A DNA stretch of 64,000 nucleotides from Escherichia coli (lineage in GTDB: Bacteria > Pseudomonadota > Gammaproteobacteria > Enterobacterales > Enterobacteriaceae), in assembly GCF_029227855.1 (NCBI RefSeq), contig NZ_CP074356.1. The stretch is one strand, 5' to 3'. Position numbers and translations under genes: made by a program. This document shows positions 45,034-55,666 of the stretch, in pieces (the stretch's first letter is position 1; each line of letters begins with the position of its first letter). Below the pieces are notes generated by a model. The model was not told the origin of the DNA. It searched no databases and worked only from the letters and a program-made list of their open reading frames with translations.

Positions 45034-45109
45034 TCCTCTGTAGTTCAGTCGGTAGAACGGCGGACTGTTAATCCGTATGTCACTGGTTCGAGTCCAGTCA
45101 GAGGAGCCA
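45034..45109 (+). tRNA. asnW: tRNA-Asn (GUU), integration target of the downstream island
   Basis: 76-nt tRNA-Asn on the plus strand; its last 16 nt plus 4 downstream nt are repeated at 55647-55666. Confidence 0.9.
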
Positions 45110-45270
45110 AATTCAAGTTTTCATGCTTATCTGTACGTCTCTATTTGTTTACGATTCAGTAAGTTAGCGTGAAAATCCTTCCCGGTGCGTATCTGGTTTT
45201 CTCTCTGTATCGGGATAATTTGGTGGTCAGATCTGGGGTCAGTTTGGTTCGATTCTGGAGTGACCCCCAA

Positions 45271-46532
45271 ATGTCTTTAAACGATTCTAAAATCCGCAAG
45301 TTAAAACCCTCTTCCCGTCTGGTAAAACTCTCCGACTCTCACGGTCTGTATCTGCTCGTCAATCCGGGCGGTTCACGCATCTGGTATCTCAAATATCGTT
45401 TCAACGGAAAAGAATCCAGAGTCAGTCTTGGCGCATACCCGCTTGTCTCACTGGCAGAAGCCAGGCAACAGCGCGACGGTATCCGTAAGTTACTGGCGCA
45501 GAATATCAACCCGGCGCAGCAGCGCATGGCGGAGAAAGCGGCCTGCTCCCCTGAAAAGTGCTTTAAGGCAGTGGCGCTGGCCTGGCACAAAACCAACAAA
45601 AAATGGTCGGCTGATTATGCCGCCCGTATTCTCGCCAGTATGGAAAACCATATCTTCCCGGCGATTGGTCATCTGCCAGTTGCCACTCTTAAAACGCAGG
45701 ATTTACTGCTTTGTTGCGGGTTATCGAGGATAAAGGCTTTCTGGAAGTCGCGTCCCGAACCCGGCAGCAACTCAGCAACATCATGCGCTATGCCGTTCAG
45801 CAGGGGCTTACCGAAAGCAATCCGGCGCAGCATCTGGATGGCGTTGTCGCCTCACCCGTAAAGAATCACTACCCCGCGTTACTGCTGGAGCGGTTGCCCG
45901 AACTGCTTGGCCGCATCGGTGACTATCAGCAGGGCCGGGAGTTAACACGGCTGGCGGTGGTGCTGACGTTGCACCTGTTTATCCGTTCCAGCGAACTGCG
46001 TTTCGCCCGCTGGAGCGAGATCGATTTCAGGCACAAAATCTGGACCATCCCCGCCACCCGCGAGGCAATCGACAAAGTACGGTTTTCGGGGCGTGGCGCA
46101 AAAATACGTACCCCGCATATCGTGCCGCTCTCCCGCCAGGCGATTGCCATTCTGAAACAGATACAGGAGCTTTCCGGCCATCTGGATCTGGTGTTTCCCG
46201 GTGATCATAACCCGTACAAGCCAATGAGTGAAAACACCACCAACCGGGCGCTACGCCTGATGGGGTATGATACGAAAACTGAAATCTGCGGGCATGGACT
46301 CAGGGCGATGGCCTGTAGCGCCCTGGTGGAGTCGGAGCTGTGGTCACGCGATACGGTGGAGCGGCAAATGAGCCACCAGGAGCGTAACAGCGTGCGGGCA
46401 GCCTATGTGCATAAAGCGGAGCATCTGGAGGCCAGAAAGGCCATGATGCAGTGGTGGTCGGATTATCTGGATGTGTGCCGCGAGGGGTATGTTGCGCCGT
46501 ACATTTATGCCCGGCAGCATAAGGCAGCCTGA
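45271..46532 (+). pseudogene. int: P4-type tyrosine integrase, disrupted by a frameshift near 45709-45711
   Basis: N-terminal part MSLNDSKIRKLKPSSRLVKLSDSHGLYLLVNPGGSRIWYLKYRFNGKESRVSLGAYPLVSLAEARQ... is in one frame up to ...LKTQDLL; the rest (LLRVIEDKGFLEVASRTRQQL... through the catalytic region, ending ...YARQHKAA) continues in another frame from ~45711. Confidence 0.75.
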
Positions 46533-46689
46533 ATCAGAAATAACGGAAATCATTAAAAATGTAAAAGCAGATCCTGATTGACCGGGATCTGCTTATTGTA
46601 TTGAGAAGTATTACCATTTTTCTGTTATTATCAATCGGAAAGTATCTAAAAATATTTGGCCCCAAATAATTTTGGTGAAAACCAATCAA

Positions 46690-47110
46690 TAAACCATTTA
46701 TCAATAGGTAAGTACCGGAAATTATTCCAGTAGAATATTTTCAGGCGATTGCCTATTAATAAATACATTATTGATAGATAAGTGCCTTCTGTGATTTGTC
46801 CGCAAATCACAGAAGATGAAAACCTATCAATACGGGATATTTTCACGGAAATACCAATTAATACTCCAGAATATCTCCTGACCATATACTCTGAAACCTG
46901 TAAGAACTGCATCAGATATTGAGAGACCATATAGATATAAGTCTGAAATTATTTTGTTTCCAATGATTTCAGGCGAAAACCTATCAATGCATCTGTTTTC
47001 AATAGGCAGCCACCTTCCGTGATTAACATGTTAATCACGGAAGGTGAAAAGCTATCAATAATCGATATTTTCACGGAATTACCACTTAATACATCCCAAA
47101 AAATGCGCCA
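46690..47110. repeat. Iteron-like repeat block: six CTATCAAT-type motifs in both orientations around two long perfect palindromes
   Basis: tatcaatagg, attgatagat, cctatcaatac, cctatcaatgc, ttcaatagg and gctatcaataa; 30-bp palindrome 46786-46815 (cttctgtgatttg tccg caaatcacagaag) and 36-bp palindrome 47011-47046; ~45-bp unit gaaaaCctatcaata...atattttcacggaaTtaccaAttaatac is duplicated. Confidence 0.5.
47011..47046. repeat. Perfect 36-bp palindrome
   Basis: caccttccgtgattaacatgttaatcacggaaggtg equals its own reverse complement. Confidence 0.8.
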
Positions 47111-47869
47111 TAAAATACCGGGCAATCTTTCCTGATACACATTATCACTGCACCAGCTATACAGAGACAAAATAATCTGCACCAGCCCCTGTAAATCGGT
47201 TATTTGTGCCAGTGTCCCGCCGCTCTACCTGTTCAGGGTTGTGCCAGTTTCTGGCCCTTTGGTTTTCGGCCCTTTCCGGTCAGGCGCTGTTACCCTTATT
47301 GCCCCTTAACCTTTATGACCCTTTCCCTTTCTGACGCAACCAGTTTATTTTGAAATGCTCCATGACAGTCTGCACCAGACTGTATTTTCACCACAGGATA
47401 ACGATCACAAAGTGCAAAAAAATAACATGAAGCACCGAAGATTGTTAATCTATATGTAGCAGGTAATGATGTCAAAAACTGTCGCAGCATTTTTTATAAA
47501 ATTATGAGACATTCTGTGGGCATATAATATATGTCACAAGATGCAGGAAAACAAAGAGAGAGTTTTCAGATATAATCCTGCGTTAGAATTAATGTGATGC
47601 CCCGGTGAATTTACATTTTAAAATTTCCCTGTCCCGTAATATCGGTAAAAACGATTGAAACACCAACTATTAATCGGGAACGTCTCGAGTGATTACAGGG
47701 TAATCACTATAATATCCCGGCAAACTATATTGGTTAAGCAGGAGAATCTGATCAGTTGATATTTATTCGTCATGCTGTAACGATATTTTCACAATATAAA
47801 CCCGTTCGCCCCCTGCGCCAGATCCGGTACAGAGGGTACGATAAATCGCTGTCGTTACGCAGTAACGTA

Positions 47870-54174: not shown

Positions 54175-54753
54175 CAGTACGATGATGAATCGGGGCTGTG
54201 CTATAATCGTTATCGTTACTACGAGCCGTTACAAGGGAGGTATATTACACAGGACCCGATTGGGTTAAATGGGGGGTGGAATTTATATAAATATCCGCTG
54301 AATCCAATAAATTATGCAGATCCTCTTGGCTTAGCCGTAGATATAAACCACTTCCCAGTCAACGAAGACATACGAAATTATGCAGAGAAAGTTTGGAATA
54401 ATCCTAATATCATTACAATTGGAACACATGGTGATCCTCAATCAGTATATGATGAAAATTATAATAAGATAGATGTCAAGACATTAGCTAATGAGGTTCG
54501 AAATCATCCTAAATTTAAACCTGGAATGTCAGTAAGACTGTTATCCTGTAATACAGGAAAAGGAAATAACTCTTTTGCACAGCAATTGGCAGATGAACTA
54601 GGTGTGAGAGTCTATGCTCCTGACCAATATGACTGGTACTATTCAAATGGTAAGGTAGAGCCTTGGGGAGGATTCTATGATGCAAACAATCAATTGCAAA
54701 TGGACACGAATCAGCCTGGACATGAGTTTACATTCAAGCGAAGGAAACCATAG
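54175..54753 (+). other. In-frame continuation of rhs: end of core (DPxGL motif at 54319-54333) plus ~139-aa variable C-terminal toxin domain of unknown type
   Basis: Same frame as rhs with no further stop until 54751: [53 protein letters not shown] then [16 protein letters not shown]...[10 protein letters not shown]...[10 protein letters not shown]...FKRRKP; AT-rich unlike the GC-rich core. Confidence 0.6.
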
Positions 54754-54755
54754 GT

Positions 54756-55358
54756 ATGAGGTATTTTCTCTTTATATTTATAACAATCCCCCTTATCTCT
54801 GGAGGTCATATGAGTAATGATAGCGAAAAGATAATATCAACATATTCGCTCAATTTTTTATCACCAGATGATGTGAGGAAAGAAGAACTTAAGGCATCAC
54901 AAGGTGATAGTGATGCTGCATTTAAATTGTACAAATATTACCTTTTTTGCGAGCCAAAATCATACAGAAAACAGCACGAATGGTTAATAATATCGGCAAA
55001 TAATGGAAATGCTATAGCTCAATATAACTTATCAAGAGAACTTGAGTCAGAAGGAAAAGTAGATGAATCAATACAATGGCTGAAAAAATCAGCGGAACAT
55101 GGTAATAATTATGCACAATATCAGATATCAAAATATTTATTAAAAATAGGTGATATTAGAGGATCGGAATATTATCTAAACTTATCTGCGGATAACGGAT
55201 GTGTATTTGCAATAAAAGATATTATCAAAAATATGATGGATAGTGGAAGGTACGATGACGCCCTCATTTGGGTTGAAAAATTGAAAAAATTGTATCCTGA
55301 CACAAATACCGAACTTTACATACAAAAAATAACGCAGAAAAAAAAGCAATCCAAATAA
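54756..55358 (+). CDS. Candidate Rhs immunity protein with Sel1-like repeats
   Basis: ORF directly after the toxin domain; AT-rich; Sel1-like motifs (AAFKLYKYY, NGNAIAQYNLSRELESEG, SAEHGNNYAQYQISKY). Likely true start is ATG 54810 (MSNDSEKII..., GGAGG 5 nt upstream) rather than 54756. Confidence 0.6.
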   Translation: MRYFLFIFITIPLISGGHMSNDSEKIISTYSLNFLSPDDVRKEELKASQGDSDAAFKLYKYYLFCEPKSYRKQHEWLIISANNGNAIAQYNLSRELESEGKVDESIQWLKKSAEHGNNYAQYQISKYLLKIGDIRGSEYYLNLSADNGCVFAIKDIIKNMMDSGRYDDALIWVEKLKKLYPDTNTELYIQKITQKKKQSK

Positions 55359-55646
55359 TAATTATATATAATTACTCGCACAGAGTTACAGTATTGCAAG
55401 AAATATATCTAGCATATAAAGTCGCCGCCAGTAAAGATAAAGTACTGTGTAATCCTTCCTCCCATATAGGGGTAAAAACTTAGCATCCAGTGCCCTCGAC
55501 TTAATTTTTAGTATTTTCTCTGTGAAGTGACACTTCGTAGGATTCAGTTCATGTTTACCAGAAAAAAGGTGGTCATTCTGGTGGTCTTGACAATCTCGAT
55601 TTTTTGTTTTAGCTTTCCAATCAGCCAATTAATGGCTACGGCGATC

Positions 55647-55666
55647 CCAGTCAGAGGAGCCAAATT
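55647..55666 (+). repeat. attR-like 20-bp direct repeat of the asnW 3' end
   Basis: ccagtcagaggagccaaatt is identical to 45094-45113 (tRNA-Asn 3' end plus 4 nt). Confidence 0.75.

Follow-up and report, generated by a model that had tools for sequence, protein, structure and literature searches.

An apparently decayed P4-integrase island with an Rhs toxin/immunity module at asnW of Escherichia coli, and its relatives at other asn tRNA genes

What is the segment of about 10.5 kb that separates asnW from yeeN in one Escherichia coli chromosome, and is it unusual for such a segment to carry an Rhs toxin/immunity module? The locus lies in a stretch of 64,000 nucleotides of contig NZ_CP074356.1 (assembly GCF_029227855.1), which is hereafter called the window. 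An earlier note on this DNA had described it as a compact island bracketed by a 20-bp repeat of the tRNA end, containing a frameshifted P4-type integrase, iteron- and palindrome-rich DNA, a possible recombinase-N-domain open reading frame (ORF), a Ner-like operon and the Rhs module. Our analysis indicates that positions 45114-55666 are, in all probability, a decayed member of an island family that was inserted by a P4-type integrase into the 3' end of asnW, with an operon controlled by a C4-type antisense RNA and with an Rhs/immunity cargo, and that the copy is now a fixed remnant.

The boundaries of the insert are exact. ARAGORN finds three tRNA-Asn(GTT) genes in the window, and the one at 45034-45109 (+ strand; Rfam tRNA 72.6 bits) is the integration target; its name is taken from synteny with K-12, since the tRNA between yeeO and yeeN is asnW in the MG1655 annotation. 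The 20-bp direct repeat CCAGTCAGAGGAGCCAAATT, composed of 16 nt of the tRNA 3' end and AATT, occurs as exact matches at 45094-45113 (+, attL core) and 55647-55666 (+, attR core). In a base-by-base comparison the window is collinear with K-12 until ...GGAGCCAAATT, diverges there, and rejoins exactly from the CCAGTCAGAGGAGCCAAATT at 55647. The inserted segment, 45114-55666, comprises 10,553 bp, and its excision restores the K-12 yeeO-asnW-yeeN junction. When 44300-45113 is joined to 55667-56480 to mimic the empty site, 4971 of the 5426 complete E. coli genomes match this construct contiguously (at least 80% of the query at a single position), and 79 genomes have the entire island together with its two flanks. 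The nearest complete genome, E. coli JNEC-KY178 (L001), differs at 5 positions in 12 kb and has the order cobS-cobT-ldtA-tRNA-nac-cbl-tRNA-yeeO-tRNA-[island]-yeeN-amn-shiA. A plasmid search returned partial matches only, none of them spanning the island. The bracketing repeat, the absence of the segment from the K-12 asnW-yeeN interval and the match of the repeat to the tRNA end on realignment were thus all borne out. The insert is a genuine genomic island at asnW and is correctly delimited.

A different origin of the repeat has to be weighed here, because the four asn tRNA genes, identical in sequence and spread over ~20 kb, are known for recombination and inversion (PMC8209727). CCAGTCAGAGGAGCCAAATT also forms the end of the other two asn tRNA genes found in the window (40797-40816 and 43206-43225, on the - strand in both cases). 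The repeat could in principle be fortuitous, or homologous recombination between the tRNA copies could have brought in foreign DNA. We regard this explanation as hardly credible: CCAGTCAGAGGAGCCAAATT has four matches in the window against 0.00 expected from 100 shuffles, so that chance does not account for an exact repeat of 20 bp. Furthermore, the integrase gene adjoins the tRNA, a conserved arm adjoins attR, and an exact core bounds inspected members of the family at four asn tRNA genes, with the outside gene order unchanged. The arm, on the island side of attR (55564-55646, +), contains GGTGGTC repeats as candidate integrase arm sites and is 82-95% conserved in the related islands of strains O145 (L002), W4 (L004), ETEC1734 (L006) and GPEC1054 (L007) despite their differing cargo; TGGTGGTCW is also found at 45221, close to attL. 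Conservation of ~85 bp inside attR across cargo types matches the expectation for an attP arm. Insertion at asnW by a P4-type integrase remains the preferred explanation of the repeat. The other two asn tRNA genes in the window, asnV and asnU (40801-40876 and 43210-43285), are empty and flanked directly by their K-12 neighbours, and the island is seen at just one of the three visible sites.

With regard to the context of the Rhs element, the earlier note had considered it unusual for an Rhs gene to lie on a tRNA-targeted island with no vgrG or other type VI secretion system (T6SS) gene inside. Our statements about the family are drawn from eight E. coli loci, six loci from three look-ups in other genera, and summary counts, rather than from a full census. 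The interior without the Rhs gene (46533-50560) occurs in 266 complete genomes at coverage of at least 80% and identity of 85-100%. JNEC-KY178 holds a near-identical copy of the window island at asnW, whereas the others differ in their cargo: O145, at asnT, has the same backbone followed by tssG-tssF-vgrG-PAAR; W4, at asnW, has DUF2169 and an RHS-repeat protein; ETEC1734, at asnV, and GPEC1054, at asnT, each have an Rhs gene in which both the tip and the immunity gene are different. The island of AMSHJX01 (L008), at asnT, has a 52-54% identical integrase, a reversed backbone module, DUF2169 with a PAAR toxin, and the anti-phage system Lamassu. A further island with an intact integrase (L003) is located at asnU.

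An exact 17-bp core of the tRNA end bounds L001, L002, L003, L006, L007 and L008, and the attR of W4 is degenerate. The family thus occupies four different asn tRNA genes, asnT, asnU, asnV and asnW, and the search at other asn tRNA loci that the earlier note had proposed found related islands at the first three. In L003 the order yeeN, asnW, yeeO, asnU, island, cbl is that of K-12 outside the island; therefore, the asnU copy is not accounted for by a simple inversion between two tRNA genes. The simplest reading is that the family members entered the four identical asn tRNA genes independently of one another, any of the four being open to integration, as has been documented for the pks island and the high-pathogenicity island (HPI) (PMC8209727). 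Judging from these loci, Rhs and other T6SS-related cargo appears to be the rule for the E. coli asn-tRNA members, some of which also have vgrG, PAAR or baseplate genes. Because the sister islands, with the same backbone and repeat at asnT, asnU, asnV and asnW, routinely carry such cargo, the context of the window Rhs is not unusual.

The window copy has lesions in four genes. The P4-type tyrosine integrase gene beside asnW (45271-46532, +; NF007246, E 5e-69) is a pseudogene, annotated as 'frameshifted' by RefSeq in the near-identical genome, and the alignment places a single 1-bp deletion at ~45705; when the frame is repaired, the protein is 96% identical in amino acids to the products of the intact L002 and L003 genes and 71% identical to the pks-island integrase. 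One-third of a second tyrosine recombinase gene, int2 (47870-48487, -; Phage_int_SAM_2 and Integrase_1; also 'frameshifted' in RefSeq), has been lost through deletions of 194 and 99 bp (293 bp in all) relative to the intact 294-aa gene; the intact int2 of L003 matches PF12835 (E 4e-59) and PF12834 (E 2e-40). The gene of a Ner/SfsB-like helix-turn-helix (HTH) repressor (49338-49592, -, with the ORF at 49404-49592; NF007670 SfsB, E 6e-26) retains 62 of 84 codons before an in-frame stop, as seen by translation against L002, and its full-length relative matches the transcriptional repressor family phrog_769 (E 2e-26). The fourth lesion is a stop codon in the Rhs gene ahead of the toxin tip. Only the immunity gene, a gene for a conserved 153-aa protein (hyp153) and the RNAs look intact. 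The inventory in the earlier note was accurate as to the frameshifted integrase and the palindrome-rich DNA, and its recombinase-N-domain ORF proved to be the int2 remnant. It was right about the presence of the Ner-like gene and of the Rhs/immunity module, overlooking in both cases the stop codon that cuts the reading frame, and it had not noticed the two RNAs of the backbone, a C4-type RNA and an EFASI RNA.

These lesions suggest that the window copy is an immobilised, eroding and fixed remnant. One could argue, on the other hand, that the island is still mobile, its att sites being intact: HPI, pks, a sister island in the same cell or some other occupant of an asn tRNA gene might supply an integrase in trans. 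The perfect 20-bp repeats and the conserved attR arm are compatible with this, related integrases use the same tRNA core (that of pks being 71% identical), and sister islands with intact integrases exist. However, integrases that are only 50-70% identical usually differ in arm-site specificity, no excisionase was recognised in the island, asnU and asnV are empty and no helper is visible in the window, and damage to as many as four genes points to a long stay during which mobility was not under selection. We thus consider continued mobility unlikely and return to the fixed remnant as the better description.

The cargo of the island is an Rhs gene (50572-54753, +), which runs rightward from an AT-rich divergent region. 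Its core (50572-54333, +) scores 2476.9 bits with NF041261 RHS_core, for which the cutoff is 2000; it begins with DUF6531 (E 3e-20) and a weak PAAR-like motif (PAAR_motif, E 0.24), continues with YD repeats and an Rhs_assc_core match, and ends in ...INYADPLGL, i.e. the conserved PxxxxDPxGL motif, after which the tip diverges. The core is GC-rich and the tip AT-rich. Homology to the Rhs genes of ETEC1734 and GPEC1054 ends exactly at 54333, the end of the core, which points to an exchange of the tip between otherwise homologous cores, i.e. classical tip replacement.

In the window the Rhs frame through the toxin tip is interrupted. An in-frame TAG at 54172-54174, where the nearest genome has CAG, lies 53 codons before the tip, implying that the tip is not translated here; the next in-frame ATG is at 54526, past a conserved His of the tip. 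For the 86 nt around the TAG, the best match in the 5426 complete genomes has one mismatch, and the stop is shared by none; all 218 genomes that match this region are without it.

The variable tip itself (54334-54753, +; 139 residues) has no significant match in Pfam, PHROG, NCBIfam or PADLOC, nor among PDB sequences, and is rare, with nine homologues in 5.8 billion clustered proteins. The homologues share the motifs HG ... LLSCNTG ... FAQQLA ... V[YF]AP[DN], in which the Cys is invariant. The predicted fold is that of a clan CD (caspase-like) cysteine peptidase, and our best guess, for which the support is moderate, is that the tip would act as a caspase-like cysteine protease.

Immediately downstream, an intact putative immunity gene (54756-55358, +; RefSeq start 54810) opens 2 bp past the Rhs stop. 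RefSeq names the product 'tetratricopeptide repeat protein' or 'sel1 repeat family protein'; the Pfam TPR/Sel1 matches are weak (E > 0.3) and no family is significant, so that Sel1/TPR-like is the term used here. When the start 2 bp after the Rhs stop is taken, the protein gains a hydrophobic N-terminus (MRYFLFIFITIPLISGG; 54756-54809) that the RefSeq start omits. Should this longer form prove real, the immunity protein might be exported or anchored in the membrane, a point of relevance to the site of action of the toxin.

The combination of an intact immunity ORF with an Rhs gene that has a nonsense codon before its tip raises the question of whether an orphan immunity locus is all that the island still amounts to in this strain, protecting its host against relatives that fire the same toxin. 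Dozens of other genomes do have the intact Rhs with the same tip, as seen from the 79 genomes with the island and the 218 that match the TAG region without the stop. The nonsense allele, however, occurs in no other complete genome and is probably recent, and its presence may be uninformative on selection; the TAG may even be a sequencing error. A role as orphan immunity locus is conceivable in our opinion, but doubtful. The more interesting material is at the family level: a shared backbone, co-varying C4 specificities, an EFASI leader and a rare toxin domain.

The backbone is best understood from the leftward operon. A C4-type antisense RNA, of the class of P1/P7 c4 and P4 cI, lies at 50104-50192 (-) and scores 62.2 bits with Rfam RF01695 (gathering 45); it is above threshold also in the four relatives L002, L003, L004 and L008 (66-85 bits). 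Just upstream, an a1b1/isrK-like element at 50214-50289 scores 43.8 bits with RF03163 (gathering 46.7) and 45.5 bits with RF01394 (gathering 50), i.e. slightly below threshold in the window and above it in L002. Within it lies an upstream, a1/b1-like target pair (50226-50289, -), consisting of TTAGCCT (50251-50245) and CCTCACTGAC (50235-50226), and a downstream, a2/b2-like pair (50062-50099, -) consists of TTAGCCT (50099-50093) and CTCACTG (50068-50062). Here CTCACTG directly adjoins the Shine-Dalgarno sequence of hyp153. The loops of the C4 RNA, AGGCTAA and GTCAGTGAGG, are complementary to the upstream TTAGCCT/CCTCACTGAC and to the downstream TTAGCCT/CTCACTG, over 7-10 nt in each case.

Both pairs were recognised by complementarity and by co-variation with the loops. 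In L002 (13100-13370) the loops GTTCCAA and CCAGTATGA pair with TTGGAAC and TCATACTGG / CATACTGGA; in L004 (12700-12970) the loops GTTCCAA and CCTGTAACAC pair with TTGGAAC and GTGTTACAGG / GTTACAGGA. Loops and both target pairs thus vary together in three combinations, including that of the window, which provides direct comparative evidence for functional C4 pairing. It also suggests that several C4 'immunity' specificities are present within one island family, like the heteroimmune c4 variants of P1 and P7. By analogy with P1/P7 c4, the RNA would pair with two sites upstream and two downstream of itself, and since the downstream pair abuts the ribosome-binding site of hyp153, it should keep the leftward operon off. 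The Shine-Dalgarno sequence of hyp153 is GTAG in the window and its near-identical relative, as opposed to GGAG in L003 and L008, which may be another sign of decay.

The first gene after the C4 RNA is hyp153 (49589-50050, -). Its 318 homologues across Enterobacterales include none with a name; no match was obtained in Pfam, NCBIfam, PHROG or PADLOC, a PDB search with the hyp153 profile was empty, and a structure model matched generic four-helix bundles only, which is uninformative. The Ner-like gene follows, and the operon ends with int2, preceded by an EFASI RNA motif (48543-48670, -; Rfam RF02957, 100.8 bits, gathering 51.2) that lies 56 nt 5' of int2 on the same strand. The arrangement is kept in L002 (11237-11365), L003 (11323-11451), L004 (10866-10994) and L008 (12947-13080), where the motif is found 55-110 nt upstream of the PF12834/PF12835 recombinase, again on the same strand. 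From this position, EFASI looks like the leader of the second recombinase gene and not like a free-standing small RNA. STAXI RNA, expected near EFASI according to its Rfam description, was not found nearby even at E <= 10.

As a separate observation, the 130 bp between EFASI and the Ner-like gene (48803-48932) are ~83% identical to an unannotated segment of ~150 large conjugative Salmonella plasmids; on the S. Infantis plasmid p-F219, taken as an example, this segment has a PemK/MazF toxin-antitoxin pair in its vicinity.

The two recombinase genes face each other with their 3' ends, and the DNA that separates them is an AT-rich non-coding stretch (46533-47869; GC 0.33-0.44), in which no credible gene was found. 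It contains two diverged units of ~131 nt (46734-46864 and 46962-47092), each centred on a perfect hairpin (46789-46816 and 47010-47046; single-stranded DNA fold z -5.5 and -5.0) with inverted CTATCAATA boxes on either side; 8 of the 31 CTATCAATA-like matches in the window fall inside 46683-47060. The hairpins of the two units differ in sequence, yet both are perfect palindromes. W4 has one such unit only. A role of these repeats as an invertible switch found no support, as no inverted orientation was seen among six relatives compared. The slot 3' of int2 is variable in the relatives, and in L008 it is occupied by Lamassu (8882-11757; LmuA E 5e-157, LmuB E 1e-212), beside the DUF2169-PAAR toxin module.

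Taken together, the observations can be arranged into a scheme that we hold to be probable. The P4-type integrase would have inserted the island into the 3' end of asnW, duplicating the last 16 nt of the tRNA and 4 nt more. The conserved backbone consists of the integrase, the AT-rich spacer and a leftward operon with promoter, C4-type RNA, hyp153, Ner-like repressor, EFASI RNA and second recombinase; once derepressed, the operon would presumably express hyp153, the Ner-like repressor and, with EFASI as its leader, the second recombinase. The cargo bay is variable and is transcribed rightward to attR, and the E. coli asn-tRNA members appear to fill it with T6SS-related weapons. In the window the cargo is an Rhs protein with a probable clan CD cysteine protease tip, presumably delivered by a T6SS, followed by its immunity gene.

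The phage-like RNA in this scheme invites the alternative that the backbone is, or derives from, a helper-dependent phage satellite of the P4 type or similar, in which the C4 RNA would serve as the immunity function and a helper would package the element. In addition to the C4/cI-type antisense RNA with its a1b1 and a2b2 targets, the P4-type integrase and the defence-system and weapon cargo, as in the hotspots of P4-like satellites, are consistent with such an origin, and RefSeq annotations of an 'ash family protein' overlie the C4 RNA in relatives. The core genes of P4-like satellites are nevertheless missing: the annotations of the inspected loci contain no alpha primase or other primase/helicase and no sid, delta, psu or epsilon gene, and no P2/P4 cos site was matched at up to 3 mismatches. 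Moreover, hyp153 has no PHROG match and is present in one tiny record of 1.5 kb among 50,697 phage records. Membership in the P4-like satellites was therefore rejected, and a satellite origin in the wider sense appears improbable, the integrase-inserted island with a C4-controlled operon being retained.

The same backbone is not restricted to asn tRNA genes or to E. coli. In Klebsiella, Salmonella and Dickeya (L014-L019), the surroundings of three hyp153 homologues were inspected and show the arrangement of a P4-type integrase, a PF12834/PF12835 recombinase, HTH_35 and hyp153, except that the Dickeya locus is without the second recombinase. These loci adjoin DUF554-speC-mltC, on the pheV side, and their cargo is AbiE, DUF4747, TacAT, or a type I restriction-modification (RM) system with DarTG; in the Salmonella locus, a PAAR-colicin-DNase and immunity genes are located further along, past a second integrase fragment. 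In E. coli JJ1886 (L005 11757-21993), the hyp153 and C4 region is part of a thrW island, beside type I RM and AbiE. Given this distribution, the backbone appears to be a carrier of weapons and defence genes in general.

Going one step further, we tentatively propose, as a possibility that we would not yet call likely, that the backbone forms the control core shared by small integrative elements of Enterobacterales that make up an undescribed family. Such elements would combine a P4-type integrase, a PF12834/PF12835 recombinase after EFASI RNA, a Ner-like repressor, hyp153 and a C4-type RNA of several specificities; they would use several tRNA targets (asn, the pheV region and thrW) and shuttle weapons (Rhs, PAAR toxins and vgrG) as well as anti-phage systems (Lamassu, AbiE, type I RM with DarTG, and TacAT), with a phage-like 'immunity' RNA timing the recombinase operon. 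No description of the island or the backbone was found in the open-access literature, which is not proof that none exists; modular P4-integrase tRNA islands as such are a well-established concept (PMC11537424, PMC6035254).

The window copy, apparently a dead remnant, changes little by itself, and its value is that it leads to the family. The family shows that in E. coli the pairs of T6SS effector and immunity gene, those of Rhs type among them, move on integrase-bounded islands at asn tRNA genes, and the occurrence of the same backbone with anti-phage systems in Klebsiella, Salmonella and Dickeya links the spread of weapons to that of phage defence through a single vehicle. For the C4-type RNA and for EFASI, an Rfam motif without known function, the backbone moreover provides a genomic setting and a role that can be tested.

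Two observations concern other parts of the window. A complete propanediol-utilisation (pdu) operon with pduF and pocR spans ~19300-36300, between tmaR (yeeX) and the cob riboswitch/cobU, at a place where K-12 presumably has the CP4-44 prophage. In the region that matches ~12750-13810 of the window, the annotation of JNEC-KY178 lists tsuA (yeeE) as a pseudogene because of an internal stop, a statement that applies to that genome.

Among known systems, the element is a P4-integrase tRNA island, and the closest parallels are the pks (colibactin) island and HPI. These likewise insert at the 3' end of an asn tRNA gene, for which any of the identical copies can serve, leave a short direct repeat of the tRNA end and have their integrase gene directly beside the tRNA; asnW is the usual site of pks (PMC8209727). 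The window island is five-fold smaller, carries an Rhs toxin/immunity pair instead of a biosynthetic cluster, and has an inactivated integrase. It has in addition the module of second recombinase, EFASI, Ner-like gene, hyp153 and C4, for which pks and HPI were not searched.

The EARL/ROD21-like islands also share the asn tRNA target, the direct repeats and a P4-like integrase (PMC6035254). They are 19-40 kb in length, 52 of 56 share type IV pilus genes, a MobA/MobL relaxase and TraD, all have a recombination directionality factor (RDF) near attR, and many have H-NS homologues (PMC6035254). None of these, from pilus genes, MobA/MobL and TraD to RDF and H-NS homologues, is among the annotated or predicted genes of the window island, and the EARL island that strain CI5 carries at asnT is unrelated to it in content. 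Gene content, in which the conserved syntenic core of the EARL islands is lacking, thus excludes the window island from this group.

The control region resembles P1/P7 immI (a1b1 - c4 - a2b2 - icd/ant), the cI RNA of P4 and Salmonella IsrK in the C4 match and in the layout of the target pairs. Unlike in P1/P7, the genes downstream are hyp153, the Ner-like repressor and the recombinase, with no recognisable icd/ant antirepressor or replication operon, and the host element is a small island without phage structural or replication genes.

For the toxin tip, the nearest structural references are Tce1 (DUF4347), a T6SS effector of Pseudomonas aeruginosa, and the C80 cysteine protease domains of MARTX, TcdA and TcdB, to which it is 9-18% identical with no match at the sequence level; the tip comprises only ~140 residues, and its protease activity is a prediction. 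The Rhs gene as a whole agrees with RhsA-E of K-12 and relatives in its full RHS_core, the variable tip after ...DPLGL and the immunity gene immediately downstream. It differs from the classical Rhs genes in residing inside an integrase-bounded tRNA island and not at a classical chromosomal Rhs locus, in the rarity of its tip domain, which has 9 homologues and for which a clan CD protease fold is predicted, and in its nonsense codon. The island therefore carries a bona fide Rhs element, which in the window is a pseudogene.

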